Origin: Myxococcota bacterium
GTDB lineage: Bacteria > Myxococcota_A > Polyangia > Polyangiales > Sandaracinaceae
Length of the DNA stretch: 48,766 nucleotides
Direction of reading: 5' to 3'
NCBI GenBank assembly: GCA_036149055.1
Contig: JAYZQJ010000077.1
Span: forward strand, 1-48,766
Shown: positions 5,333-19,595 of the stretch, in pieces
Layout: every line of letters starts with the position of its first letter
Position numbering within the stretch: the stretch's first letter is position 1
Program-made: the position numbers and the translations under genes
Notes under the pieces: model-generated
Told to the model about the DNA's origin: nothing
Databases searched by the model: none
The model's input: the letters and a program-made list of their open reading frames with translations, nothing else

Positions 5333-6442
5333 TCCCTCGCCGGGCAGGAGCATGTGCTCGGCGCCCTCCGCGACGTACAGCGACAGGTTCGGGTGCGGCG
5401 CCACGACGTCGCGCTCGAGCCGCGCGAGCCCGTCCGCGAAGACCTCGGGCGGGTAGAGGGTGAAGACGCTGCAGCGCGGCGTGTAGCCCATCGAGTAGAA
5501 GAGGCGGATGACGTAGTCCTCGCGGTAGGTCATCAGGCCGAAGCGCTCCTCCGGGTAGCGCGCCGCGAGGTGCGACAGCAGCGCGACCAGGCCGCCGCCG
5601 GAGGGATCGCGGCACGCGTCGCAGCCCTCGGGCAGGGTGCGCGCGAGCCCCCAGACGTCGCGCCACTGACGCTGGAGGCAGACGGGCATGTAAGGGTCGG
5701 GCAAGGGGGTGCCCGAGTCGTCGAGGAGGGTGACCCGCGCGTCCGGGAAGGCGTCGTGCACGCGCGGGTAGCTCAGGGCGGCGCCGAAGCCGCCCGCGCT
5801 CGAGCCGGTCAGGAGCACGTGGGGCGGATCGAAGGTCGCCGCGAGGCGCTCGAGCACGATGCGCATGTTGACGGCCCCGACGTGGGTGTAGCCGTCGGAG
5901 GCCTCGAGCACGTCCCCCGCGAACACGTCGCCCGAGCAGTAGGGGACGAAGACGTGGGTCCAGTCGCGGAAGCGCCCGTCGCGGGCGAAGAGCCAGCTGT
6001 AGCGCTCGACGCGCGGGAGGAAGTCGGCGGCCCGCTCGGCGCCGAAGGACCGCCGCGACACCCCGCTCCGACAGGAGGCCTCGTTGAAGCAGGCGCCGCC
6101 CTCCTGGAGGTAGAGGATCAGGCCGGCGTCGGGATCGCCGCGGCGGATCATCACGCCGCTCGGCGAGCCGTCGAGGCAGCGGGTCCGGGGCAGCGGCACC
6201 CAGACCCACTCCCGGTCGGGCAGCGCGAGCGGCCCGGGGTCGGGCGCGTCGTCGGGCACGTAGGGCGGCGGGAGGGGCGCGGGCGTCCAGTCGGCGCGCG
6301 GCGGCGGCGGCGGGCTCGGGCCCGAGTCCGAGGGCCCAGCGTCCGGGAGCCCGGCGTCCGAAGCCCGATCGTCGCGAGGGGCCGTCTCGGCGCAGCCCCC
6401 GAGGCAGAGCGCGAGGAGCGCGACGCAGAGGCGGCGGCTCAC
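5285..6442 (-). CDS. Pectinacetylesterase/Notum-like hydrolase, probable lipoprotein
   Basis: GTG start at 6442 coupled to the upstream stop; lipobox [34 protein letters not shown]. Confidence 0.82.
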
Positions 6443-7833
6443 GCCTCCTCCGCGAGCGCGATCAGCTCCTGCGCGGCCCGCTCGCCCGACCAGAGGGCGC
6501 CGTGCACCGTCGCCGGGTACTCGGGGTGGGTGTGCTCGCCCGCGAAGCGGAGGCGCTCGTGGGCCGGCGCGCCGAGCACCTCGATGGCCTCCGGGGATCC
6601 GCCGGTCGGCACGTGCATGTAGCTGCCCCGCGCGAAGGGATCGCGGCTCCAGCGGCTCATCGCCACTGCCTCCGGCTCGGGCACGTCGTCGCCGAACATG
6701 CGCCGGAGCACGGTCATCACCCGCCCCGCCGCCGCGTCGTCCGAGAGCCCCTCCAGCGACCGCGCCGCGCTGCCGCCCGCGAAGGCGATCAGGATCGGCG
6801 TGTCCGCGTGGTACGCCCAGCTGAGCATCACCGGCAGCTGCGGCTCGCCGTCCGCCATCGCGCCGAGCAGCTCGGCGTCCTCCGGCCAGAAGACGCGCGG
6901 GAAGCGCAGCGCGACCTTGTTGAGCGTGCCCATCGCGAGCTGCCGCGAGGCGCGCCGCTTCGCGCTCGAGAGGGGCGGCGAGAAGCGCACGCTGCCCGCC
7001 TGCAGCACCCCGAGCGGCAGGGTGACGATGGCCGCGTCGGCCTCGAAGGTGCCCTGGTCGGTGCGGATCTCGACGCCCTCGTCGCCGTAGCGGATCGCGC
7101 GCACACGCTGCTCGGTGCGCACGTCCAGGCCCTCCGCGAGGGCGTCGACGATCGCGCCGTAGCCGCCGGGGAAGAGCCGGTCGCCGCCGCCGAGCTCCTC
7201 GTCGAACCCGAGGTGGCCGAGGGACATGGCGCTCGCGTCGGCGGCCAGCGCGACCTCCATCGTCTCGACTCGCCAGGCGAGCGCGCGCCGCTCGGCCGGG
7301 TCGAGCGACTCGCCCTCGAGGGCTCGCTCGATGCCCCAGGCGATCGACCGGTCCTGCTCGAGCGTCTCGGCGATCTCGGCGACGTCCTCGAGCAGCGCGT
7401 CGAAGGCCGACCCGATCTCGTCGATCTCGGCGCGCGCGAGGCGGCGGCCGTCCACGTCCCAGAGCTCCGGCGTGTCGTAGTCGGTCGGGCGCGTCTCGAG
7501 CTCGAGCGCCGCCGCCATCTCGGTGATGGGGTTGCCGTCGACGCCGTGGATCCACGAGGCGCCGAGGTCGAGCGGGACGCCGAGCTGGTCGGAGGTCCAG
7601 ACGCGGCCGCCGATCCGCGCCCGGGCCTCGAGCACGGTCACGTCGAAGCCGGCCTGGCGCAGCCTCCGCGCCGCGCCGAGCCCGCTCACGCCGGCCCCCA
7701 CCACCAGCGCGCGCTCGGCCCGGCTGGGCGCGGGGAGCGGCTCGACCCGCTCGGACCCGCCGCACTCGCAACCCCCGAGCTGGGCGCTCAGCGCCGCCGC
7801 GCCGAGCCCCGCGAGCCAGTCCCTCCGCCGCAT
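6439..7833 (-). CDS. Flavin-containing amine oxidase (MAO/PAO family), Tat-exported lipoprotein
   Basis: RRRDWL Tat motif plus LGGC; GAGVSGL, EARARIGGR, DLGASWIHG, GSY, FAGEHT, TVHGA. Confidence 0.9.
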   Translation of the reverse strand: MRRRDWLAGLGAAALSAQLGGCECGGSERVEPLPAPSRAERALVVGAGVSGLGAARRLRQAGFDVTVLEARARIGGRVWTSDQLGVPLDLGASWIHGVDGNPITEMAAALELETRPTDYDTPELWDVDGRRLARAEIDEIGSAFDALLEDVAEIAETLEQDRSIAWGIERALEGESLDPAERRALAWRVETMEVALAADASAMSLGHLGFDEELGGGDRLFPGGYGAIVDALAEGLDVRTEQRVRAIRYGDEGVEIRTDQGTFEADAAIVTLPLGVLQAGSVRFSPPLSSAKRRASRQLAMGTLNKVALRFPRVFWPEDAELLGAMADGEPQLPVMLSWAYHADTPILIAFAGGSAARSLEGLSDDAAAGRVMTVLRRMFGDDVPEPEAVAMSRWSRDPFARGSYMHVPTGGSPEAIEVLGAPAHERLRFAGEHTHPEYPATVHGALWSGERAAQELIALAEEA

Positions 7834-7851: not shown

Positions 7852-8484
7852 TCAGGCGTCGTACGTCGTCGTCACCTCGACGGTCAGGCCGTCGTTCGAG
7901 AGCTCGTCCAGGGTCACGCGGCTCTCGATCTGGCGGGCGCCGTTCTTCTCGAGCAGGAGGGTCACGCCGGGCGGCAGGTGATCGGTGACGTTCGCGCGGA
8001 AGGCGCCGTCGCGATCGGTGAACCGGAAGACGCAGCGCCCCGGCTCGTTCTCGACGAGCTCGAGCCGCCCCGACGTGTAGAGCCGCATCCAGAAGCCCGG
8101 GATGAGCTTGGCCACGGTGGTCGGGCTCATGATGCCGAGGAACATCTTGTAGAGCGCCTGCAGGAGGCGGCCGCCGCCCAGCTGCACGAGCTTCTCGTAG
8201 AACTGCTCGCGGGTGACGCCGGTCTCGCGCGAGGCCTCCACGAAGGCGGCGTCGAGGAAACGATCCCACGTGGCGACCGGGTAGAAGCTGCTCGCGAGGA
8301 GCGGCCCGTCGATCAGGTCTCGGTCGGCGTCGGTGAGCCGACCGAGCGCGCGCTCGTACACGCCGTCGCCCCACTCGCGGCGAATGGTCCCCCGCGCCTC
8401 GTTCATCACGGCGCCACGAAGCTTCTCATCGCGCGGCGGTGGCGAGGCCGACAGAGACGGTGACGAATCTTTCTCTTGCTGCAT
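7852..8484 (-). CDS. Hypothetical protein resembling myxobacterial DUF2378/V4R-like ligand-binding proteins
   Basis: KLRG...WGDGVYERAL...LLASSFYP...W..LY.SG pattern; preceded by GGGGAGGAG RBS; divergent from the sigma54 activator. Confidence 0.6.
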   Translation of the reverse strand: MQQEKDSSPSLSASPPPRDEKLRGAVMNEARGTIRREWGDGVYERALGRLTDADRDLIDGPLLASSFYPVATWDRFLDAAFVEASRETGVTREQFYEKLVQLGGGRLLQALYKMFLGIMSPTTVAKLIPGFWMRLYTSGRLELVENEPGRCVFRFTDRDGAFRANVTDHLPPGVTLLLEKNGARQIESRVTLDELSNDGLTVEVTTTYDA

Positions 8485-8578: not shown

Positions 8579-9982
8579 ATGGCCAATACGTCTGGAGCAG
8601 CTGCTGACGTTCTACTGGTCGGTGACCCGAAGGCCTCCTCCGTCGATCTCGCGGAGTGCCTTCGCGCGCGAGGCTATCGGGTCGAGGTGAGCGAGCGCGG
8701 GTTGCCCGCGTCGTTCGAGGGCTCTCCCCCCGACCTGGTCGTCGTGTGCCCGCCCGTCTTCGCGCGCACCGCGGACGACGTGCTCGGGGAGGTGCGGGCC
8801 CGGGACGGCGGCACACCGGTGGTGATCGCCGGCGCGCGTGATCAGGTGCGCGCGGAGCGCTTGATGGCCGCCGGCGCCTTCGAGTGCGTGCTCGATCCCG
8901 CGGACGAGCCACATCGCCTGCTCGCGGCGGTCGGCTACGCGCTCGGCGCGCGCGAGGAGGACCGCGCGCTCAGCTACCTGCGCGAGCGAGACGCGACCGG
9001 GGCGCGGCTGATCGGCCAGCACCCGTCGATGCGGCGCATCTTCGACATGGTCGCCCAGGTCTGTCAGCGCACCGCGTCCGGCGCGACGCCGGCCATCCTG
9101 GTCTGCGGCGAGACGGGCACCGGCAAGGGCGCGCTCGCGAAGTCGCTCCACTACCGCAGCCTCCGCCGCCACCGCCCGTTCGTGGAGGTCAACTGCGCCG
9201 CGCTGCCGCCGAGCCTCGTCGAGTCGGAGCTCTACGGCTACGAGAAGGGCGCGTTCACCGACGCGGCCCGCAGCCGCCCGGGGCTCTTCGAGACCGCGAA
9301 CCGCGGGACCCTCTTCCTCGACGAGATCCCGAGCGTGCCGCTCGGGACCCAGGCCAAGCTGCTGACCTCGATCGAGGAGAAGGTCTGTCGGCGGATCGGC
9401 GGCCGCGAGGTCACCCGCCTCGACGTGCAGATCATCGCCGCCGCTCAGCCGGTGCTGCGATCCCTCGTCCAGTCCGGCGGCTTCCGCGAGGATCTCTACC
9501 ACCGCCTCAACGTCATCCGGATCGAGCTGCCGCCCCTCCGCGAGCGAGGCGAGGACGCCATCCTGCTCGCGCGCGCGTTCGTCGACGAGCTCTCGCGCGA
9601 GTACGGCATCCCGCCGCGCCACCTCTCGGAGGACGCGGAGGACTTCATCCGAAGTTACCACTGGCCGGGCAACGTCCGAGAGCTCCGGAACCAGATCGAG
9701 CGCATCGTGCTCCTCTCCGAGGACGAGGCGATCGAGGGCTGGCAGTTCGAGCGCGTGAGCGGCGAGCTGGTGCAGCTCTCGGTCGACGACGCGGAGGACG
9801 AGCCGGAGCTCCGGATCCGGATGCCGGCCTCGGGGCTGCCGCTCGTCGAGGTGGAGAAGCGGCTGATCTCGCGCGCCCTCGAGCTGAACGACGGCAACGT
9901 CACCCGGACCGCGCGCTACCTCTCGATCACCCGTCAGACGCTCATCTACCGGATGAAGAAATTCGGGCTCAGCCGACGATGA
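8579..9982 (+). CDS. Sigma54-dependent enhancer-binding protein with degenerate receiver domain and Fis-type HTH
   Basis: GETGTGK, GAFTDA, LFLDEI, FREDLYHRLN, WPGNVREL, C-terminal HTH. Confidence 0.93.
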   Translation: MANTSGAAADVLLVGDPKASSVDLAECLRARGYRVEVSERGLPASFEGSPPDLVVVCPPVFARTADDVLGEVRARDGGTPVVIAGARDQVRAERLMAAGAFECVLDPADEPHRLLAAVGYALGAREEDRALSYLRERDATGARLIGQHPSMRRIFDMVAQVCQRTASGATPAILVCGETGTGKGALAKSLHYRSLRRHRPFVEVNCAALPPSLVESELYGYEKGAFTDAARSRPGLFETANRGTLFLDEIPSVPLGTQAKLLTSIEEKVCRRIGGREVTRLDVQIIAAAQPVLRSLVQSGGFREDLYHRLNVIRIELPPLRERGEDAILLARAFVDELSREYGIPPRHLSEDAEDFIRSYHWPGNVRELRNQIERIVLLSEDEAIEGWQFERVSGELVQLSVDDAEDEPELRIRMPASGLPLVEVEKRLISRALELNDGNVTRTARYLSITRQTLIYRMKKFGLSRR

Positions 9983-9992
9983 CAGTCAGGGG

Positions 9993-10038
9993 TGTAGCAT
10001 TTGCCACCATCGCTGACTCGAGTGTGGCTTTTCAAACA
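9993..10038 (+). promoter_or_regulatory. Candidate tandem enhancer (UAS) sites TGT-N10-AC[A/C]
   Basis: TGTAGCATTTGCCACC (9993-10008) and TGTGGCTTTTCAAACA (10023-10038), 30 bp apart, upstream of the sigma54 promoter. Confidence 0.5.
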
Positions 10039-10098
10039 GCGTTGTTTCATATCGGACAGCTCGCTCCCGGTCGCCGTCCGATCGTCCCATCCCGCGAC

Positions 10099-10114
10099 AG
10101 GCACGTTCATTGCT
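10099..10114 (+). promoter_or_regulatory. Sigma54 -24/-12 promoter
   Basis: AGGCACGTTCATTGCT has exact GG-N10-GC spacing with GGCACG and TTGC; lies just downstream of an EBP gene and ~30 bp before RBS/ATG. Confidence 0.82.
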
Positions 10115-10142
10115 CGTCCCCAAATCGAGAGGGGAGCACGAG

Positions 10143-11999
10143 ATGAGCATCAACAAGGGGAGCTGGGTTCTCGCCGCCGCCTGCCTCGCGGCGATGGCGG
10201 GGTGCGCAGGAGACGAGGCCGTGGGCGCGGCGAGCAAGCCGCTCCTGATCGCCACCGACGGGCCGACCACCACCGACACGGCGATCGGGCTGGCCCTCGA
10301 GATCGAGAACGGCGCGAGCCCCCCGCTGCGGGTGCGCGCCGGGCAGAAGTTCTTCCTCGACCAGGTGGACATCCGCGCCTTCGTCACCACCGACGTCGAC
10401 AACCCCTCCCTCGACGCGCTGCGCGCCTCGAGCGACTTCGCGTCGCTGGACTGGCGGGGGCTCGCCCTGGCGGAGAACGAGCCGGTGCTGCTCCCGAACC
10501 CCGACGGGACGTTCACCGACCGCCGCTTCTACCGCGACGCCGCCTGGATGGAGCGGCACAGCCTGATGGTGCTCTGGCAGGTGAACGCCCGCGGCCGGCG
10601 GGTGGGGCGCCCCCTCCTCGTCTCGCTCGGTCAGGATGATCGCCGCCGGCGTCACGACCACTTCTTCATCCGGCGGCTGCGCGGCATCCAGTGGGCCAAC
10701 GACTGCGCGGCGCCCACCGACTGCAGCGGCGCGACGAGCTTCCAGGAGGAGGGGCTGGTCGAGGTCCGCAACGCGCGGAGCACCGCGCAGACCTTCCGCA
10801 TCGCGCCGGAGACGACCGGGCTGCGCCTCTGGTGGAGCGCGCGTCGCGGCGCGCCCTACGAGATCCCGGTCGAGCAGGTGGCCTCGCCGGAGTACGACTA
10901 CAACTTCGACATCGAGCTCGCCGCGGTCACCCCGCCCGGCCCGCATGGCTACTACGAGCCCGGCACCGACGTGACCTTCCGGTTCACGATGACCGACGGC
11001 TCGGGCACCCGCCTGCACCCGGAGGGCTCGATCCCGTCGTACGCGGAGGTCGCCTTCGGCGCGAACACGACCGGCATCCAGTACTACCGCGGCTTCTTCG
11101 ACCAGCCGGCGACCTACTGGCGTCGCAAGCACCGCGAGCGCGGCATGGGCGCGATGATCATCGGGCCCAACCAGGACATCCAGCCGATCCGCACCATCGC
11201 GCCGCTCGAGGCCTTCCTCGGGCCCGACCCGACCATCCCGGTCGGCCTGCCCGATCGCGACGGCGTCTACTCCGAGGCGGCGACCATCCCCGCGTCGGCG
11301 GTGGTCTTCGGCGGGGCGTTCGTCCCCGGCAACACGCCGTGGTTCGAGCCGCAGCCCGACACGATCACCTTCCAGATCCCCGCCGACGTCCAGCCCGGCA
11401 CCTACCGCGTCGCGATCAAGGGCCGCCGCGTCTACCTCGGCCAGGACATCCCGCGGACCACGGTGGTGGAGATCCAGGTCGGCACGACCACGCCCACGTT
11501 CGCCGAGATGACCACCGGCCCCTGCACCAGCTGTCACTCGGACGGCGGCGAGCTCGCGCTGGTCCTGCACGCCAACGACGACCGGGCCGCCTGCGCCGGC
11601 TGCCACGTGCCGCTGGGCTTCGAGCTCGAGGGGCCGGTGTACGTGCGCACGCACTTCATCCACTCCCGGAGCGATCGCTACGACGCGCCGACCCAGGAGT
11701 GCGCGACCTGCCACGTGGACGAGGCGAGCATCCAGCGCACCAGCCAGAGCGCCTGCCTGAGCTGCCACACCAGCTACCCGCCCGATCACGTCGCCGCCTT
11801 CGGCCCGATCGAGAGCATCTACACCGGCGGGCTCGACGCCGGCGCCTTCGAGCAGTGCACGGGCGCCTGCCACACGGAGCACCCCGGCGCCGGCTTCGAC
11901 ACCGACTTCCACGTCGACGAGGACCTCGACGAAGACACGGACGAGGACTTCGACGAGGACACGGACGAGGACTTCGACGAAGACGTCGACGAGGACTGA
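10143..11999 (+). CDS. Multiheme (probably five-heme) c-type cytochrome lipoprotein
   Basis: RBS GAGGGGAG; lipobox MAGC; CTSCH, CAGCH, CATCH, CLSCH and CTGACH clustered at the C-terminus; acidic tail. Confidence 0.85.
   Translation: MSINKGSWVLAAACLAAMAGCAGDEAVGAASKPLLIATDGPTTTDTAIGLALEIENGASPPLRVRAGQKFFLDQVDIRAFVTTDVDNPSLDALRASSDFASLDWRGLALAENEPVLLPNPDGTFTDRRFYRDAAWMERHSLMVLWQVNARGRRVGRPLLVSLGQDDRRRRHDHFFIRRLRGIQWANDCAAPTDCSGATSFQEEGLVEVRNARSTAQTFRIAPETTGLRLWWSARRGAPYEIPVEQVASPEYDYNFDIELAAVTPPGPHGYYEPGTDVTFRFTMTDGSGTRLHPEGSIPSYAEVAFGANTTGIQYYRGFFDQPATYWRRKHRERGMGAMIIGPNQDIQPIRTIAPLEAFLGPDPTIPVGLPDRDGVYSEAATIPASAVVFGGAFVPGNTPWFEPQPDTITFQIPADVQPGTYRVAIKGRRVYLGQDIPRTTVVEIQVGTTTPTFAEMTTGPCTSCHSDGGELALVLHANDDRAACAGCHVPLGFELEGPVYVRTHFIHSRSDRYDAPTQECATCHVDEASIQRTSQSACLSCHTSYPPDHVAAFGPIESIYTGGLDAGAFEQCTGACHTEHPGAGFDTDFHVDEDLDEDTDEDFDEDTDEDFDEDVDED
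11916..11999 (+). repeat. 12-bp tandem repeat x7 (GACGA[G/A]GACnnn) encoding a (DEDx)n tail
   Basis: gacgaggacctc gacgaagacacg gacgaggacttc ... gacgaggactga. Confidence 0.9.
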
Positions 12000-12028
12000 A
12001 CCTTCTCACCTGGAGAGCTTTCGAACCC

Positions 12029-13192
12029 ATGGCCAAGGTCCAACTGAGGAGCGCGCGCACCACCAAGACCGACGTCGACGAGGCGATCGCCGAGCTGATG
12101 GAGCAGCTCGGCGAGGGCGAGCCCCGGCTCGTCACCCTCTTCGCCTCCCGCGACCGCGATCACGGCGCGCTCAACCGGGCGCTCCGGGACCGGCTGCCGA
12201 GCGGGACGCGCCTGATCGGTGCGTCGAGCGCGGCGGAGATCGACCACCGCGGGGTCGGCTTCGGATCGGTCGTGGTGTCCGCGCTCGACGGGGACCTCGA
12301 GGTGGGCGTCGGGCTCGGTGGGGGCCTCAGCGAGGACGCGCTCCGCGCGGGCTCGACCGCGATGAAGAGCGCCTGCGCGCAGCTCGGGACGAGCCCCCGC
12401 GACCTCGACACCCGCACCCACGTCGGGCTGGTGATCGACGACGGGTACAAGAACAAGAAGGAAGAGCTGCTGATGGGCGCGCTCGACCAGAACCAGGGCA
12501 TCCTCCTGGTCGGCGGCGGCGCGAGCTGCGGGGAGATGGATCCCGCCAAGCAGTCGGCGCTCGTGCACGTCGACGGCGAGGTCGCCGAGGACTGCGTGGC
12601 GGTGGCGATGATCCGCACCGACGCGCCCTTCGGGGCGCTCCGTCACCACGCCTACACGCCCACCGACGAGCGGGTGACCATCACCGAGGTGAGTGACGAC
12701 GGCTACCGCGCGCTCACCATCGACGACCGCCCGGCAGCGGAGCGCTACGCCGAGGCGATCGGCGTGTCCGTGGAGGAGCTACCCTTCGGCGCGCCGCGCG
12801 GCTTCTCCGATCGCCCGCTCGCGATGCGGGTCGGTCGCGAGTACTTCATGCGCTCGCCGCTCATGCCGATGCCCGACGGCTCGGTGCTCTTCGCGAACCT
12901 GCTCGAGGAGGGCGCGGAGTACGAGCTGATGAAGCTGGGCGACCAGCCGACGATGATGCGGGAGTTCCTCGAGGAGGAGGTCCCGCGCCGGGTCCGGAGC
13001 CCGCAGGCGGCGCTCTACTTCCACTGCAACGGTCGCCAGTACGTGGCGATGCAGAAGGACGAGGCGGGCGCGCTCTCGAGCACCTTCGCGGCCGGCCCGA
13101 CCTGCGCGGGCTTCAACGTGCAGTTCGAGATCTACTGCGGCTTCCACATCAACACGACGCTCACCGCGCTCGTCTTCGGCTCCGACGAATGA
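12029..13192 (+). CDS. FIST-domain (NosP-like) signal transduction protein
   Basis: ATG at 12029 (MAKVQL); LIGASSAAEI, LVGGGAS, IDDRPAAERY, HCNGR, GF...EI...HINTT. Confidence 0.85.
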   Translation: MAKVQLRSARTTKTDVDEAIAELMEQLGEGEPRLVTLFASRDRDHGALNRALRDRLPSGTRLIGASSAAEIDHRGVGFGSVVVSALDGDLEVGVGLGGGLSEDALRAGSTAMKSACAQLGTSPRDLDTRTHVGLVIDDGYKNKKEELLMGALDQNQGILLVGGGASCGEMDPAKQSALVHVDGEVAEDCVAVAMIRTDAPFGALRHHAYTPTDERVTITEVSDDGYRALTIDDRPAAERYAEAIGVSVEELPFGAPRGFSDRPLAMRVGREYFMRSPLMPMPDGSVLFANLLEEGAEYELMKLGDQPTMMREFLEEEVPRRVRSPQAALYFHCNGRQYVAMQKDEAGALSSTFAAGPTCAGFNVQFEIYCGFHINTTLTALVFGSDE

Positions 13193-15255
13193 GCGAGCTC
13201 GCCGAGGAGAACGAGCGGCTCCAGAAGGAGCTCGCCCGACAGAAGCGTCTCGCGACCCGCGCGCTCGCCAGCTATCAGCAGCGCGCCCTGCAGATGGAGC
13301 TCATCCGTCAGCAGAACGAGGACCTCGATCGCCTCGCCGCCGACCTGGCCCGCGCCAAGCGGGTGGCGGAGGAGCGCGCGCGCGAGGTCGAGGAGGCGGC
13401 CCGGCTGAAGAGCGAGTTCCTCGCCAACTTCAGCCACGAGATCCGCACGCCCCTCAACGGGATCATCGGCTACTGCGACCTGCTCGGGCAGGAGGAGGGC
13501 GAACGGCTCACCGCGCACGGGCGGCGAGACCTCACGACCATCCGCCGGAACGCCAAGACGCTGCTCGCGCTGATCAACGACATCCTGGACCTCTCGAAGA
13601 TCGAGAGCGGCCAGATCGACGTGGTCACCGAGGACGTGAAGCTCCCCGACGTCTTCGAGGAGTGCGCGGCGACGGTGCGCGAGCGGCTGAAGAACAAGGA
13701 CGTGGAGCTCCGCGTGGTCGTCGAGGACGGCGCCGACGTCGCGCGCACCGACGGGCTCAAGCTCCGCCAGATCCTGCTCAACCTGCTCACGAACGCGGTG
13801 AAGTTCACCGAGCTGGGCGAGATCCACGCGCGCGCCCGCCGGGCCGGCGACGACCTCGAGATCGTGGTGGAGGACACCGGCGTGGGCATCCCGCCCGAGC
13901 AGCTCGAGAGCATCTTCGAGAAGTTCCGGCAGGTGGACGGCTCCTTCACGCGCACCGCCGGGGGCACCGGGCTCGGCCTCGCGATCGTGCGCGAGCTGAC
14001 GCGGCTGCTCGGGGGGCGCGTGGAGGTCGAGAGCCTGCTCGGGCGGGGCACGACCTTCCGCGTCAGCCTGCCCGGCGTGCTCCGGGAGACCGAGCGGCCG
14101 GCGCGGCGCGAGGAGACGGGCTCGGAGCCGACCCTGCGCGGCAGCGGAGAGACCCACGTGCTGCTCGTCGACGACGACCCGCTGATCCAGGCGCTGGTGC
14201 GCTCGCGGCTCGGCGCCGACGGCATGAAGGTCACCACCGCGATCGACGGCGCGGAGGGGCTGCGCCTGATGCGCACCGCGTCTCCCGACGTCGTCATCCT
14301 CGACATCCGCATGCCGAAGCTCGACGGCTGGTCGGTGCTCTCGGCGATGAAGAGCGACGCGGAGCTCGCGCGCATCCCGGTGATCATCCTCTCGGTGGAG
14401 GAGGAGCGCGGGCGCGGGTTCTCGCTCGGCGCCTTCGAGTACCTCGTGAAGCCGGTGGAGCCGGACCGCCTGGTCAGCGTGATCTCGAGCGCGATCTCGC
14501 CGACCCAGGGCGAGGTGCTGGTGGTCGACGACGACGCCGACACCCGCGAGCTCGTGCAGCGCCGGCTGCGCGCGGAGGGCTTCGACGTCTCGCACGCCGC
14601 GACCGGCGAGGACGCGCTGCTCCGGATGCGGGTCTCGCCTCCGTCGCTGATGGTGCTCGACCTGGTGATGCCGGGCGTCGACGGCTTCGAGGTCCTCTCG
14701 CGGATCCGCGCCGCCGGGCACGAGTTCCCGGTGGTGGTGCTGACGGGCAAGGAGCTCGACGACACCGACCGGGTGCGGCTGCGCGAGGGGCTCGCGCGGG
14801 TCATCCAGAAACACGGCCGCTCGATCGAGGAGGTGGTGGACGAGGCGAAGCGCTTCGTGACCCGCCGCCGGGAGCTCCACGCGGCCCGGGTGCCGCGGGT
14901 GCTCTACGTCGAGGACGTGGCGCAGAACCGCGACATCGTGCGGCGCTACCTGCGCGGCGTCGTGGAGCTCCTCGAGGCCGAGGACGGAGAAGAAGGCGTC
15001 GACGTCGCACGCCGGGAGCAGCCGGATCTGATCCTGATGGATCTGAGCCTGCCGCGAATGGACGGCTGGACCGCGACCCGGACGCTGCGGGGCGACGCAG
15101 CGACCGGGGCGATCCCGGTGGTGGCGTTGACCGCGCATGCGTCCGCGGAGGACCGCGAGCGTGCGCTGGGGGCGGGGTGTTCCGACTACCTGACGAAGCC
15201 CGTGGAGCGAGGTCAGCTCGTCCGGGCCATCCGGAAGAACCTCAACCGAACGTAG
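13189..15255 (+). CDS. Cytoplasmic hybrid histidine kinase with three receiver domains
   Basis: FSHEIRTPLN H-box, NAVKFT, DTGVGI, GTGLGL; three REC domains each with the phospho-Asp; no TM or sensor domain. Confidence 0.93.
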   Translation: MSELAEENERLQKELARQKRLATRALASYQQRALQMELIRQQNEDLDRLAADLARAKRVAEERAREVEEAARLKSEFLANFSHEIRTPLNGIIGYCDLLGQEEGERLTAHGRRDLTTIRRNAKTLLALINDILDLSKIESGQIDVVTEDVKLPDVFEECAATVRERLKNKDVELRVVVEDGADVARTDGLKLRQILLNLLTNAVKFTELGEIHARARRAGDDLEIVVEDTGVGIPPEQLESIFEKFRQVDGSFTRTAGGTGLGLAIVRELTRLLGGRVEVESLLGRGTTFRVSLPGVLRETERPARREETGSEPTLRGSGETHVLLVDDDPLIQALVRSRLGADGMKVTTAIDGAEGLRLMRTASPDVVILDIRMPKLDGWSVLSAMKSDAELARIPVIILSVEEERGRGFSLGAFEYLVKPVEPDRLVSVISSAISPTQGEVLVVDDDADTRELVQRRLRAEGFDVSHAATGEDALLRMRVSPPSLMVLDLVMPGVDGFEVLSRIRAAGHEFPVVVLTGKELDDTDRVRLREGLARVIQKHGRSIEEVVDEAKRFVTRRRELHAARVPRVLYVEDVAQNRDIVRRYLRGVVELLEAEDGEEGVDVARREQPDLILMDLSLPRMDGWTATRTLRGDAATGAIPVVALTAHASAEDRERALGAGCSDYLTKPVERGQLVRAIRKNLNRT

Positions 15256-15265
15256 GCAAACTTCG

Positions 15266-15637
15266 ATGGAAAACTCTCTTCGCCTGCTCGTGGTCGATGA
15301 CGACGAGGAGCATCTGGAGCTCGTGCGCCGGCTCCTGTCCGCGTACCAGTTCGAGGTGCGCACGACCTCCTCGCCGATCGGGGTGTCCAACCTCGTCCGC
15401 GAGTTCCTCCCCAACGTCATCCTGATCGACGTCAACCAGCCCGCCCTCAGCGGCGACCGCATCCTCACCCTGGTCCGCCGCAACGCGAAGTCGGCGGCCA
15501 AGCTGGTGCTCTTCTCCTCGGCGGACCCGGAGCGCCTGCGTCAGCTCGCGCGATCGGTGGAGGCCGACGGCTGGATCCCCAAAGGGCTGGCGCCGCGTGA
15601 GCTCGCCGACCAGCTCCGGAGGGTCTGCGCCACCTGA
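15266..15637 (+). CDS. Single-domain response regulator
   Basis: LVVDDD, ILIDVNQP, FSS, IPKG. Confidence 0.88.
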   Translation: MENSLRLLVVDDDEEHLELVRRLLSAYQFEVRTTSSPIGVSNLVREFLPNVILIDVNQPALSGDRILTLVRRNAKSAAKLVLFSSADPERLRQLARSVEADGWIPKGLAPRELADQLRRVCAT

Positions 15638-15655
15638 GCTCGACCGGAGGTACCC

Positions 15656-17425
15656 ATGGCTCGAAGCGTCACCGATCCCCTCTCGATCGCGTGCGCCGAC
15701 GCGCTCCTGCGCGTGTGGCCACGCCTCTACGACGAAGACCCGCCCGACCTCGCGCTCGCCTGGATCGAGCGCGCGGTGGCCTCGCCGCCCGAGGGCTGGC
15801 GCTCGCTCGTCTCCGACGACCACACCCCGGTCGAGCTCTCGATCGCCTCCGGCCCGGAGGGGGAGAGCCTGCGCCTGCTCGTCGAGGCGCAGGCCGACGA
15901 GGCGACCACCCCGGCGCAGATGGCCGCCGCGCTCTCGCTCCAGCGCTGGGCCTGCGAGCGGCTCGGCGCGCGCGGGGAGCGGCTCGACGCGATCGCGCCG
16001 TGGCTGCTCCCGGACGGACACGCCGGCCGCTTCGGGCTTTGGCACGCGGCGGTCTTCCGTCCGGGCGGCGGGATCGACCTCAAGGCCTACTTCGATCCGG
16101 CGGCCCGGGGAGCGTCCCGCGCGGCCGAGACGGTGGAGCGCTCCCTCGAGGCGCTCGGACTCCAGCGCGCCTGGCCCGCGGTGGCGGCGCTGGCGGAGCG
16201 AGGGCCGGCCCTCGATCGGCTGGGGTTCTTCTCCCTCGACCTGGTGGAGCCGGAGCGGGCCCGCACCAAGGTCTACGTCTCGAAGCACCGGGCCAGCGTC
16301 GCCGAGCTCCGCGCGGCGGCGAGGCTCGCGCGTCACGGCGACGAGGACGCGCTGGTCGCCCACCTCGAGGCCACCGTCGGCGCCCGCGAGGGCTTCCTGC
16401 CGGCGTCGCTCCCGGTGGTCACCTGCCTCGACTTCGCGGGCGACGATCCCACCCCGCAGCACCTCACCGTGCACGTGCCCGTCCGCGCCTACGCCCCGGA
16501 CGACGCGGCGGCGATGGATCGCGCGCGCGCGGCGCTCCGGGCGGCCGGCCTCGCGCCTCGCCGGACCGAGGAGGGCGTCGCCGCCTTCGCCCGCCGCGAG
16601 CTCGACGCCGGCTCCGGCATGATCCCTTACGTCTCCCATCGCAGCGAGGCCGGCGGCGGGCGGGTGACCGTCTACCTCTCCCTCGAGGCCCGCGAGGTCG
16701 CCGCGCCCCACGCCGGCGCGCGGGCGGTCGAGCGCCGCCCCGCGTCGAGCGCCTCGGTGGAGGCGACGATCGAGGCCCTCGCCGCGGCGCCGATCGCGCA
16801 TCACCCGTTCCTCCAGCGCCTCGCCCGCGAGCCCCTCGCGCTGGAGCGGCTCGCGCTCGTGCTGCTGAACTTCCAGCTGGCGATCACCCGCGACTTCGCG
16901 CGTCGGCTCGCGCAGACGGTGGCGCGGGTGGACGACGAGGCGGTGCGGTCGATCCTCGCCAAGCAGCTCGACGACGAGCTCGGCCACGGCGACCCGGACG
17001 CGGCGCACCGGCTGCTCTTCGATCGCTTCGTCGAGGGCCTGCGCGACCACGTGCCGGATCCGTTGCCGGAGGGCCACCTCGCGCCGGGGCGGCGGCTCGC
17101 GGAGACGCTGGAGCAACTCTACGTGCGCGAGCCGGAGGGCTGGGTCGGCGTCGGCGCGACCCTGGTGATGGAGGTCTTCGGCCAGCAGGTCGACGCGTTC
17201 CTCGGCGAGCAGTTCCGGCGCCAGAGCGCGCTGCCCGCGTCGGTGCTGGAGTGGCTCACACTGCACGAGGAGCTCGAGCACGACCACGTCGACGAGGTCT
17301 TCACGCTCGCCCGCCGGATCCCGGAGGGCGCGCCGCGGGATCGCGCGCGCGAGGGGGTCGAGGCGCTCGCGACCGCGGGCTGGGCGTTCTTCGACGACAT
17401 GTACCGCGCGGTCTGGCCGTCGTGA
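15656..17425 (+). CDS. Fusion of a tryptophan dimethylallyltransferase-type (DMATS/ABBA) prenyltransferase and a heme-oxygenase-like diiron oxidase (HDO)
   Basis: N-terminus: SDDHTPVELS, LKAYF, FFSLDL, RTKVY, HVPVRAY, RVTVYL as in bacterial IptA/CymD/PriB-type enzymes. C-terminus: HPF, DELGHG...H, E, H..LE.DH diiron ligand pattern. Confidence 0.85.
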   Translation: MARSVTDPLSIACADALLRVWPRLYDEDPPDLALAWIERAVASPPEGWRSLVSDDHTPVELSIASGPEGESLRLLVEAQADEATTPAQMAAALSLQRWACERLGARGERLDAIAPWLLPDGHAGRFGLWHAAVFRPGGGIDLKAYFDPAARGASRAAETVERSLEALGLQRAWPAVAALAERGPALDRLGFFSLDLVEPERARTKVYVSKHRASVAELRAAARLARHGDEDALVAHLEATVGAREGFLPASLPVVTCLDFAGDDPTPQHLTVHVPVRAYAPDDAAAMDRARAALRAAGLAPRRTEEGVAAFARRELDAGSGMIPYVSHRSEAGGGRVTVYLSLEAREVAAPHAGARAVERRPASSASVEATIEALAAAPIAHHPFLQRLAREPLALERLALVLLNFQLAITRDFARRLAQTVARVDDEAVRSILAKQLDDELGHGDPDAAHRLLFDRFVEGLRDHVPDPLPEGHLAPGRRLAETLEQLYVREPEGWVGVGATLVMEVFGQQVDAFLGEQFRRQSALPASVLEWLTLHEELEHDHVDEVFTLARRIPEGAPRDRAREGVEALATAGWAFFDDMYRAVWPS

Positions 17426-18552
17426 TCGACCTGACCTCGCTCCGCGCCCGCTTCCCGCTGCTCGAGGAGCGGCTCTACTGCGCGACGCCGGGGCTCGGGC
17501 CGGTCCTCCGGGAGACCTACGAGGACCTGGAGGCCTATCGGCGCACCTTCGCTCGGCGCAGCCGCGCCCTCGAGGAGTGGGTCGAGCGCTACGAGGCGCT
17601 GCACGGTCTGGTCGAGCGGCTCCTCGAGGCGCCCCCCGGCTCGGTCTTCCTCACCGACACGGCGACCTCGGCCCAGGCCGCCCTCGCCGCCGCGGTGACG
17701 CCCCGCGGCGCGCGCACGCGGATCGTGACCGGCGCGGCCGACTTCAAGTCGAGCCGCTACCTCTGGAGCGCGCAGGAGAGGCGCGGCTTCGACGTGATCG
17801 CGCTCGACGCGCACGGCGACGCCGCCCCGCTGCTCGAGGCCATCGACGAGCGCGTCGCGATCGTCGCGCTCTCCCTCGTGTCCCCGCGCACCGGCGCCCT
17901 GCTGCCCGCCGAGGCGATCGCGGCCCGGTGCCGGGAGGCGGGTGCCACCCTCGTGCTCGACGCCTACCAGGCGGTGGGCGTGGTCCCGGTCGACGTCGGC
18001 GCGCTCGGGGCGGACGTCGTCGTCGGCGGCACCCACAAGTGGCTGCACGGCGGCGGCACGGGGCTCGCGTTCGGCTACGTGGCCCCGGCGCTCTCGGCGC
18101 GGCTCGAGCCCGTCTACCCCGGCTGGCTCGGGCACGCCTCGTTGCATGCCTTCGCCGACCGCTTCGAGCCGCGGGCGGGCGCGCGGCGGCTCGCGCAGGG
18201 CACGCCGGCGATGGAGCCCGTCTACACCGCGCGGGCCGGGCTGGAGCTCGCGCTCGAGGTCGGGGTCGCCGCGCTCCGCGCGCGCAGCCTCGCGCTCACC
18301 GCGCGCCTCCACGAGGGGCTGAGCGCGCGCGGCATCGCGGTGCGCACGCCGGCGGCGCCCGAGCGCCGAGGCGGCATGGTCTGCGTCGACCTCGTCGACG
18401 GGGGCGAGGCGGTCGTGGCGGCCCTCGCCGCGGAGGGGATCGACGTGGACACCCGGGCTGGGGCCGGGGTGCGGGTCGGGCCGCACCCGACGCAGACGGA
18501 GGACGACATGGACCGGGTGGTCGACGCCCTCGCGCGGGCGGTGTCTTCGTGA
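17422..18552 (+). CDS. Class V PLP-dependent enzyme, kynureninase-like
   Basis: GTG start overlapping the upstream stop; LDAYQAVG, GGTHKWLHGGG (PLP Lys), PGWLG, GTP, RRGG. Confidence 0.8.
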   Translation: MIDLTSLRARFPLLEERLYCATPGLGPVLRETYEDLEAYRRTFARRSRALEEWVERYEALHGLVERLLEAPPGSVFLTDTATSAQAALAAAVTPRGARTRIVTGAADFKSSRYLWSAQERRGFDVIALDAHGDAAPLLEAIDERVAIVALSLVSPRTGALLPAEAIAARCREAGATLVLDAYQAVGVVPVDVGALGADVVVGGTHKWLHGGGTGLAFGYVAPALSARLEPVYPGWLGHASLHAFADRFEPRAGARRLAQGTPAMEPVYTARAGLELALEVGVAALRARSLALTARLHEGLSARGIAVRTPAAPERRGGMVCVDLVDGGEAVVAALAAEGIDVDTRAGAGVRVGPHPTQTEDDMDRVVDALARAVSS

Positions 18553-19595
18553 CCGATCCCCTCGACGCGTTCGACGCGAGCCTCGCGCCGCTCGCCAGCG
18601 CGTACCTGCCGGGCGCGCTCGTCGCCGCGGCGGTCGAGCTGGGGCTCTTCGAGCGGCTCACCGCGCCCGCCGCGCCCGAGGAGGTCGCCGCGTCGGTCGG
18701 CGCCTCGGTCGAGGGCACCGCGCGCATGCTGCGGGCGCTGGCCGCGCTCGGGGTGGTTCGCCACGCGGGCGAGGGGCGGTTCGACTGCCCGCACCACGAG
18801 GCGCTCCGCGCCGATCGCCCGGAGAGCGTGGGCGCGCTCTTCCTCCACCATCACCGGCACGTGGCCCCGCTCTTCGCCCGGCTCGCCGACAGCGTCCGGA
18901 CCGGCGCGCCCCAGCACGGGGCCTGGCGCTTCGCGTCCGCCCCGCCCGCGCCCACCGCCTACGAGGAGCTGACCCGGCACCCGGAGGAGGTGGCGCTGTT
19001 CCTGCGAGCGATGGATCGCGACGGGCGCGGGGTGGGCGAGCGGATCGCCTCGGCGGTCGATCTCCGCGGCTGCGACCGGCTGCTCGATCTCGGCGGGGGA
19101 GGGGGCGCGGTCGCGCGCGGCCTGCTCCGCGCGGTCCCGGGGCTGGTCGTGGAGAGCGTGGACCTCGGGCCGGCCTGCGCCTACGCGAGGGCCCGGAGCG
19201 AGGCCCAGGGGCTCGCCGGCCGGCATCGCCTCTTCGAGCGCGACCTGAGGCGGCCGCTCGATCTCGAGCCCGCGCCCTGCGTGCTGCTCTCGGCCGTGCT
19301 CGCCGACTTCCCGGCCCCGGAGCGCGCGCTCGTCATGCGCCACGCGGCGGACTGCGTGGCCGAGGGCGGCACCCTGCTGATCAGCGAGCGGCTCCTGCAC
19401 GACGATCGCTCGGGGCCGGTCGGCGCGGCGATGCTCTCGCTCCTGACCTTCGCGGCGTTCGGCGGCGATCAGCTGAGCGCCGACGACGCCTGCGCGCTCC
19501 TCGCGCAGGTGGGTTTCGGGGTGGTCGCCCTCTGCTCCGCGCAGGACGGAGAGCGCGATCTCGTGGTCGCCGAGCGGGTCAGGCCCGCTCGATGA
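18549..19595 (+). CDS. SAM-dependent methyltransferase (Methyltransf_2 with dimerisation domain)
   Basis: AAVELGLF winged-helix N-terminus; LLDLGGGGG; LSAVLAD; GGTLLISE. Confidence 0.87.
   Translation: MTDPLDAFDASLAPLASAYLPGALVAAAVELGLFERLTAPAAPEEVAASVGASVEGTARMLRALAALGVVRHAGEGRFDCPHHEALRADRPESVGALFLHHHRHVAPLFARLADSVRTGAPQHGAWRFASAPPAPTAYEELTRHPEEVALFLRAMDRDGRGVGERIASAVDLRGCDRLLDLGGGGGAVARGLLRAVPGLVVESVDLGPACAYARARSEAQGLAGRHRLFERDLRRPLDLEPAPCVLLSAVLADFPAPERALVMRHAADCVAEGGTLLISERLLHDDRSGPVGAAMLSLLTFAAFGGDQLSADDACALLAQVGFGVVALCSAQDGERDLVVAERVRPAR

Follow-up and report, generated by a model that had tools for sequence, protein, structure and literature searches.

A conserved myxobacterial module joining a predicted pentahaem cytochrome and FIST-kinase pair to alternative, putatively tryptophan-modifying enzyme cassettes

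Organization of the locus

We describe here an eight-gene locus in a 48,766-nucleotide stretch of DNA (contig JAYZQJ010000077.1, assembly GCA_036149055.1; hereafter the window) from a Myxococcota bacterium of the Sandaracinaceae, whose genome (G000) is 9.9 Mb long and 96% complete. A gene for a sigma54 enhancer-binding protein (EBP) is followed by genes for a predicted pentahaem lipoprotein cytochrome, a FIST sensor protein, a hybrid histidine kinase and a response regulator (RR), and then by an enzyme cassette consisting of a DMATS prenyltransferase fused to a haem-oxygenase-like diiron oxidase (HDO) domain, a kynureninase-like pyridoxal phosphate (PLP) enzyme and a methyltransferase (Table 1). 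Gene calling together with Pfam searches recovered all eight of the same-strand genes, from the EBP through the methyltransferase, that had been described in a first-pass annotation of this DNA. The consecutive spacings from the EBP onward are 160, 29, -4, 10, 18, -4 and -4 bp, the last six of which bear out the tight packing that the annotation had ascribed to the final seven genes.

Table 1. Features of the locus and their positions in the window
Feature	Position	Strand	Characteristics
Sigma54 enhancer-binding protein (EBP)	8579..9982	+	Sigma54_activat, HTH_8 (Pfam); GAFTDA loop
Sigma54-type -24/-12 promoter-like site	10099..10113	+	30 nt ahead of cytochrome ATG
Predicted pentahaem lipoprotein cytochrome	10143..11999	+	Four CxxCH and one CxxxCH; lipobox-like AGC, Cys21
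FIST sensor protein, NosP-like	12029..13192	+	Pfam FIST and FIST_C
Hybrid histidine kinase	13189..15255	+	Pfam HisKA, HATPase_c, three REC
Single-domain response regulator (RR)	15266..15637	+	Pfam
DMATS-HDO fusion	15656..17425	+	PF11991 and PF14518
Kynureninase-like class-V PLP enzyme	17422..18552	+	Pfam; in clade tied to DMATS-HDO
SAM-dependent methyltransferase	18549..19595	+	Methyltransf_2 and dimerisation domain

Conservation of the linkage

The gene order cytochrome-FIST-kinase-RR-DMATS/HDO-PLP enzyme is repeated in genomes G001, G002, G010 and G014, and rearranged versions of the locus are present in Haliangiales and Kofleriaceae records. Frameshifts in the FIST and DMATS genes of G010 are probably assembly errors, the tryptophan dioxygenase (TDO) gene of this genome being split too. 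Homologues of the cytochrome number at least 375, and the named ones include proteins of Archangium, Corallococcus and Myxococcus. Among cultured strains, Pendulispora brunnea encodes a DMATS-HDO protein (WP_394846181.1) and Corallococcus coralloides the cytochrome (COCOR_00617). A plasmid search returned only partial DMATS matches.

Linkage was counted in a single sample of 401 genomes of the class, searched for the cytochrome, the HDO domain, and the TDO-family protein of a second (type B) cassette described below; locus maps were drawn for 54 distinct cytochrome loci, a mixed and non-random set, using our own gene caller and BLAST labels. The cytochrome is present in 35 of the 401 genomes, and in 26 of these a FIST gene lies beside it, as tallied from the locus maps, the G642 gene having been identified by its resemblance to that of G618. 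An enzyme cassette is present in 25 of the 26 genomes with a cytochrome-adjacent FIST gene, but in only one of the nine cytochrome genomes without one. At a preset threshold of E<=1e-20 the HDO domain is found in 20 genomes, 15 of which also have the cytochrome, and in 14 the two are within 17 kb; in the remaining genome the domain is on another, short contig. When the cut is moved to E<=1e-40, a value chosen afterwards, all 15 genomes with the domain have the cytochrome. The type B TDO (E<=1e-70, a cut set at a gap noticed after the search) is found in 13 genomes, with the cytochrome in 12 and within 10 kb of it in eight.

The linkage spans six family groups (f1, f9, f18, f26, f28 and f101), with layouts that may be tandem, divergent or convergent. 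The proposal that sensor/cytochrome and enzyme genes occur together thus stands, and the lack of co-occurrence in other genomes that the first-pass annotation had named as grounds for abandoning it is not what we find. The arrival by chance of an independent small cluster next to a signalling locus with no connection to it, followed by joint inheritance of the two, could account for either half being found alone in some genomes. However, the slot is held by two non-homologous cassettes across these six families and in all three layouts, and the cytochrome accompanies the HDO domain far more often than its background of 35 in 401 genomes; a chance neighbourhood is therefore already largely refuted, and we consider it very unlikely.

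Cytochromes without an adjacent FIST gene often adjoin another sensor or regulator (loci L079-L081, L088, L097 and L092), including a STAS-domain protein, GAF-LuxR and LuxR proteins and, as judged by eye, a LysR-like gene. An apparent cytochrome-FIST fusion in L090 is most likely a frameshift artefact, the cytochrome match being split over two frames.

Two interchangeable enzyme cassettes

Two types of cassette accompany the cytochrome. Type A, as in the window, encodes the DMATS-HDO fusion, the kynureninase-like PLP enzyme and the methyltransferase, and in type B, which is found at many loci, a TDO-family gene (PF03301) occupies the DMATS-HDO slot, with genes for a class-V PLP enzyme and a Methyltransf_2 protein after it. 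Among the cytochrome genomes only G768 has both types, and families f18 and f26 each contain type A and type B. In trees built without short and truncated rows, the PLP enzymes of type A group in a single clade apart from those of type B (support 96/99; 20 rows from six families), and the methyltransferases also divide by cassette type; the cytochrome tree sorts partly, with three changes. Because the type B cassette has no prenyltransferase, prenylation is optional, and the first-pass view of a prenylated product does not hold for the module in general.

The two types are mirrored in their gene fusions: a DMATS-HDO-PLP fusion occurs in a single record (P0143) and a DMATS-methyltransferase-HDO fusion in P0007, and TDO-PLP fusions are found at L102 and L110. 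Since a TDO-family gene occupies the same slot and the fusions mirror each other, the HDO domain likely acts as the tryptophan oxygenase of the type A cassette, a reaction that would be new for HDOs. At L077 the DMATS domain is degenerate and a tryptophan-halogenase-like gene lies upstream, yet the HDO motif is intact, arguing that the HDO domain and PLP enzyme are the core; ring decoration would appear to vary around a constant oxygenase and PLP enzyme. A third clade of PLP enzymes, lacking the tyrosine discussed below, adjoins TDO-family genes (11 of the 15 loci with a called TDO; of the 18 loci fetched, three at which gene calling failed are excluded from this count).

The notion that the HDO domain is needed in genomes without a TDO was rejected, a TDO being present elsewhere in nine of the ten genomes checked. 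G000 itself carries a separate housekeeping TDO and a tyrosine-bearing kynureninase-like gene, and these presumably serve ordinary catabolism.

The methyltransferase is absent from some loci, or is replaced by a cytokinin-dehydrogenase-like FAD oxidase that might oxidise the prenyl chain. Such an oxidase (PF01565 and PF09265) follows the PLP enzyme in type A cassettes at L067 (934-2274), L069 (10806-12116), L029 (7021-8358) and L077 (5246-6550).

The DMATS-HDO fusion

The DMATS domain scores 56.4 against PF11991 (cut-off 25), and its DDHxPxE motif and conserved basic and tyrosine residues show no variation across the 12 aligned fusions. It is closest to actinomycete tryptophan prenyltransferases and, with a score of 99, falls below the cut-off of 164 for TIGR03429. 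The top PDB match is a 6-DMATS (7W8U, E 8e-39). Prenylation may be at C6, although C6 and C5 are not distinguishable from the sequence only.

The HDO domain is above the cut-off of PF14518, and the dimetal motif of the superfamily, given in PMC11363339 as E-H-E-H-(D/E)-H, is complete in 12 of 12 aligned fusions as E441-H451-E506-H537-E541-H544. The model (pLDDT 95.2) has the seven-helix haem-oxygenase-like fold of a predicted HDO. Its structural matches include HrmI (Z 23.7; root-mean-square deviation, rmsd, 2.6; 221 residues aligned), CADD (Z 21.4), FlcD and BesC, and BesC is also the best profile match; a phmmer search of the HDO domain alone against the PDB gave no matches. In one record (P0175) an HDO domain of this family occurs twice in tandem.

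Oxygenation of the indole ring is not the only chemistry to consider. The HDO domain could instead cleave the side chain as AetD and SktA do, act as an N-oxygenase, or follow the PLP enzyme in the pathway. Such chemistry would yield a prenyl-indole aldehyde, nitrile or oxime, similar to indiacens or 5-DMAIAN, in place of a ring-opened product. The tryptophan-acting HDOs AetD and SktA, as portrayed in PMC11869266 and PMC13108848, destroy the side chain and not the ring, which counts against ring oxygenation here; the best structural match, HrmI, is an N-oxygenase, and prenyl indoles are known from Sandaracinaceae, according to PMC9306752. However, AetD ranks only fifteenth among the structural matches (Z 15.7), the PLP enzyme, which follows the HDO domain in the P0143 fusion, would be left with nothing to act on if the amino acid were destroyed, and the relatives of this PLP enzyme sit beside TDO-family oxygenases. 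We therefore think such chemistry quite unlikely.

A second class of myxobacterial DMATS loci (L031 in G019, L032 in G003, L033, L037 and L038) combines a DMATS that has a degenerate or separate helical domain with a protein of about 160 residues without assigned function and an oxidase that is either a P450 or cytokinin-dehydrogenase-like. These loci, at which neither a PLP enzyme nor a cytochrome or FIST gene was recognised, are candidates for prenyl-indole (indiacen-type) pathways.

The PLP enzyme and the type B TDO

The kynureninase-like label given to the PLP enzyme in the first-pass annotation needs qualification, as this is not a canonical kynureninase. Although the top PDB match is a kynureninase (1QZ9), the protein scores only 77.7 against TIGR01814 (cut-off 246.4) and so falls outside that family. 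Tyr226, His204 and Asp132 of the Pseudomonas fluorescens kynureninase are replaced by His, Gln and Ser, and Asp201, Lys227 and Trp256 are retained; the equivalents of Tyr226 and His204 are replaced in the PLP enzymes of both cassette types.

In the type B TDO, His65, Arg127 and His200 are invariant and the GTGGS loop is replaced in seven of seven aligned copies. Canonical TDOs have a conserved His/Arg/His set and the GTGGS loop, and replacement of the loop in MarE is linked to monooxygenation, as related in PMC11904535. The pathway product may consequently be a ring-opened anthranilate or of the oxindole/isatin type, both being possible. The pairing of a TDO-family gene with a kynureninase-like gene lacking the tyrosine is widespread (L116-L133), and there the loop reads GTPSLKG, GTGGS being missing from 15 of 15 called TDOs.

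The pentahaem cytochrome

The AlphaFold model of the cytochrome (pLDDT 93.5) has two beta-sandwich domains and a five-haem domain. Its best VIA match is to MtrC domains I-II (9EOV; Z 8.6, which is barely above the caution level of the structure tool; rmsd 6.7; 225 residues aligned), and MtrF, OmcA and UndA are also among the top 14 structural matches. Atlas similarity to OmcA/MtrC clusters is 0.93, the PF22113 score is below cut-off, and Foldseek gave only weak matches with low TM scores. As modelled, the cytochrome resembles half of an MtrC with an extra N-terminal domain. No MtrAB partner is present at the locus, and the MtrB porin (PF11854) was found in none of the five genomes searched.

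The cytochrome ends in an acidic tail of Asp/Glu repeats (11895-11999). In relatives this tail is either missing or His-rich, and its length varies within the sequenced population. A short form with three haems forms a clade of its own (L042 and L092-L097).

The FIST protein and its kinase

The sole NCBIfam match of the FIST protein is NosP (NF041558), with a score of 136.5 bits against a cut-off of 450. Cys333 and Arg336 are invariant in the alignment, and the gene, with its FIST and FIST_C domains, adjoins a kinase gene as expected of NosP; a profile search against the PDB gave nothing significant. The kinase has a highly conserved N-terminal coiled coil ahead of its HisKA, HATPase and three REC domains, and itself lacks a sensor domain. 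Inspection of the two proteins revealed no signal peptide and no hydrophobic segment in either, so that the sensor input is likely to be cytoplasmic or membrane-permeable.

Modelling of the FIST protein with two copies of kinase residues 1-145 lends weak support to a complex, with an ipSAE of 0.56 (best control 0.01), in a range where the benchmark passes at or below 0.60 comprised 18 of 157 solved complexes and both of the mismatches that passed; the partner pLDDT is 91, and contacts agree by at least 88% between runs. Some loci have Hpt and further REC genes upstream, and the core module is without a DNA-binding output. Identity with Myxococcus xanthus Hpk37/MXAN_0712 was considered, but no link to the locus appeared among the matches listed in the literature search.

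Promoter, transcripts and flanking genes

The promoter-like site ahead of the cytochrome matches 10 of 11 positions of the sigma54 consensus, and no other site on either strand of the window scores as high. Genome-wide there are 151 such sites, corresponding to a chance of approximately 0.0012 per 163 bp, that is, for a gap of this size. A search for a sigma70-type site found none, and the two terminator-like matches on the plus strand both lie within the DMATS coding sequence. The site that the first-pass annotation had placed in front of the last seven genes is thus present upstream of the cytochrome, but sigma54 control is rejected as a core trait of the module: an EBP gene lies beside the cytochrome at only six of the 54 loci, and a site with at least 9 of 11 matches is found at six of the 52 scored, five of the six EBP-adjacent loci being among the positives. 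The EBP and the sigma54 site are lineage-specific add-ons. Pfam detects no REC domain in the EBP, and its N-terminus is a degenerate receiver-like region in which the phospho-Asp position is not Asp in six of six aligned copies; the EBP, though present as the first gene as described, is therefore probably not the output of the kinase.

From the gene overlaps we infer that the genes of the locus are co-transcribed. Contigs from RNA libraries of one seawater study, in which DNA carry-over is possible and which cannot demonstrate a single transcript, bridge the RR/DMATS junction in three of four runs, the flanks being covered too. Their spans (X1, 12391-16549; X2, 9665-15909; X3, 14966-15924) together bridge the FIST gene through DMATS, and X1 contigs additionally bridge the DMATS/PLP and PLP/methyltransferase junctions.

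Divergent from the EBP is a minus-strand gene (7852-8484) that has no Pfam match and is retained among the mapped loci in G001 only; its Atlas neighbours are unnamed Myxococcota clusters, and the nearest named ones are V4R/DUF2378-like. Beyond it lies a flavin amine oxidase gene (6439-7833, minus strand; PF01593). Contigs of the X1 and X2 runs skip 6475-7786, pointing to a related population apparently without most of this gene.

Interpretation of the module

We favour, with a probability of roughly 45%, a module that both makes and senses an aromatic compound, in which the HDO domain oxygenates the ring, the FIST-kinase pair reads the cassette's product and the cytochrome handles this product at the cell surface. 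In the steps that we infer, DMATS would prenylate L-tryptophan on the benzene ring, probably at C6; the fused diiron HDO would then oxygenate the indole ring with the amino-acid side chain left intact, replacing the TDO-family haem oxygenase of type B; the PLP enzyme would remove the alanine side chain; and the methyltransferase would cap the product, which could be, for instance, a methylated prenyl-anthranilate or an oxindole/isatin-type compound. The product would likely be a small, membrane-permeable and diffusible aromatic, and the FIST protein, docked on the conserved coiled coil of the kinase, would relay the signal to the receiver domains. A more specific version, in which the non-haem HDO is a functional TDO analogue that oxygenates or opens the indole of prenyl- or halo-tryptophan, a Tyr-less kynureninase-like lyase and a methyltransferase complete the signal, the FIST protein is its haem-independent receptor and the cytochrome is a half-MtrC that switches its redox state at the cell surface, in a widespread and undescribed form of signalling with interchangeable dialects, is in our estimation unlikely.

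Several observations weigh against the make-and-sense interpretation. Related genomes are not independent, and a single genus (g68) supplies many of them. Five genomes with weaker HDO matches have no cytochrome, cassettes occur without the sensor (L029, L104, L105, L107 and L109), and sensors occur without a nearby cassette (L042 and L063); the linkage is conserved, but the module is not strictly self-contained as the first-pass annotation had it, each half being sometimes found alone. The loss of Tyr226 from the PLP enzyme makes an anthranilate outcome uncertain, and a type B TDO without the GTGGS loop need not yield N-formylkynurenine. NosP-type FIST proteins are haem/NO (nitric oxide) sensors. 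Finally, the FIST tree interleaves the cassette types with four changes, and type A monophyly is rejected by the approximately unbiased (AU) test (p-AU 0.0003; 30 of 37 rows, loci without a seen cassette being dropped), which together led us to reject co-evolution of the FIST protein with the product. One sensor lineage would therefore have to read both prenylated and unprenylated products, which counts against the specifically prenylated signal originally proposed.

The same indifference of the FIST protein to cassette type would suit a co-regulated redox module, in which genes that act under one condition lie together for that reason: the NosP-like FIST protein would sense haem/NO (or O2) and not a metabolite, and the aromatic would be redox-active or antimicrobial, for example an electron shuttle working with the cytochrome. 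Consistent with this are the MtrC-like fold of the cytochrome and the partial sorting of its tree by cassette, NosP as the only family match of the FIST protein, and loci at which the cytochrome lies beside DMATS-HDO-PLP genes without the kinase or with a FIST protein of another clade (L002, L093, L094 and L096). However, the NosP score is far under its cut-off, MtrB was found in none of the five genomes searched, and cytochromes without an adjacent FIST gene almost never have a cassette. We regard this as a possible explanation, and hold it only tentatively.

The module offers a concrete candidate for a pathway to a FIST ligand that is neither haem nor NO, as well as a candidate for one of the small-molecule signals of myxobacteria, few of which are, to our knowledge, chemically defined. 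It further suggests that an MtrC-like cytochrome may have a role on its own, away from any porin conduit. The exchange of HDO for TDO predicts a reaction outside the dozen or so validated HDO reactions summarised in a 2026 review (PMC13108848).

Comparison with known systems

The module is real and conserved, and searches of an open-access library, whose scope took in neither subscription papers nor MIBiG, found no description of the cluster; the first-pass statement that no characterised cluster with this layout was known agrees with this. In NosP-NahK pairs a FIST gene overlaps the gene for a coiled-coil kinase devoid of a sensor domain, and the FIST gene likewise overlaps a gene for such a kinase here. 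However, the scores are below both family cut-offs (136.5 against 450 and 223.6 against 400), the kinase has three REC domains, and the pair is linked with both a cytochrome and an enzyme cassette. The cytochrome appears from its model to share a beta-sandwich and pentahaem unit with MtrC and OmcA, and is likewise a predicted lipoprotein, but those proteins have ten haems in two pentahaem domains, whereas this one has five motifs, or three haems in some relatives, and an additional beta domain at its N-terminus, and MtrB was not found with it in the five genomes.

AetD, SktA, HrmI, CADD and BesC have the HDO fold and E-H-E-H-E-H motif in common with the HDO domain described here, and its likely substrate is a ring-substituted tryptophan, recalling the tryptophan-acting AetD and SktA; it differs from them in its fusion to a prenyltransferase, its PLP enzyme partner, its occupation of a TDO-family slot and an identity below 20% in the structural alignments. 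TDO-kynureninase-methyltransferase routes are of the actinomycin/sibiromycin precursor type, and type B loci share with these routes and with MarE the set of oxygenase, kynureninase-like enzyme and Methyltransf_2 protein. Here, in contrast, no non-ribosomal peptide synthetase or formamidase was recognised in the mapped loci, and the PLP enzyme is without Tyr226; the type B TDO loop is neither GTGGS nor SLGGR (PMC11904535).

The closest precedent for the arrangement as a whole is the actinomycete clusters of a conservon with an indole prenyltransferase, which, on the evidence of PMC3617294, also place a signalling cassette beside a tryptophan prenyltransferase and likewise come with two alternative enzyme types (IptA, type A; SCO7467-7468, type B). 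In those clusters a four-gene conservon lies upstream of DMATS and the partner is a tryptophanase or a flavin-dependent monooxygenase (FMO), whereas here the sensor is a FIST protein with a hybrid kinase and RR, and the partners are an HDO or TDO, a PLP enzyme and a methyltransferase, together with a multihaem cytochrome. DMATS excepted, the likeness is convergent. Because all of the parts come from known families, and actinomycetes provide a precedent for a sensor beside alternative tryptophan cassettes, we regard the myxobacterial module as a variant rather than a categorically new system.

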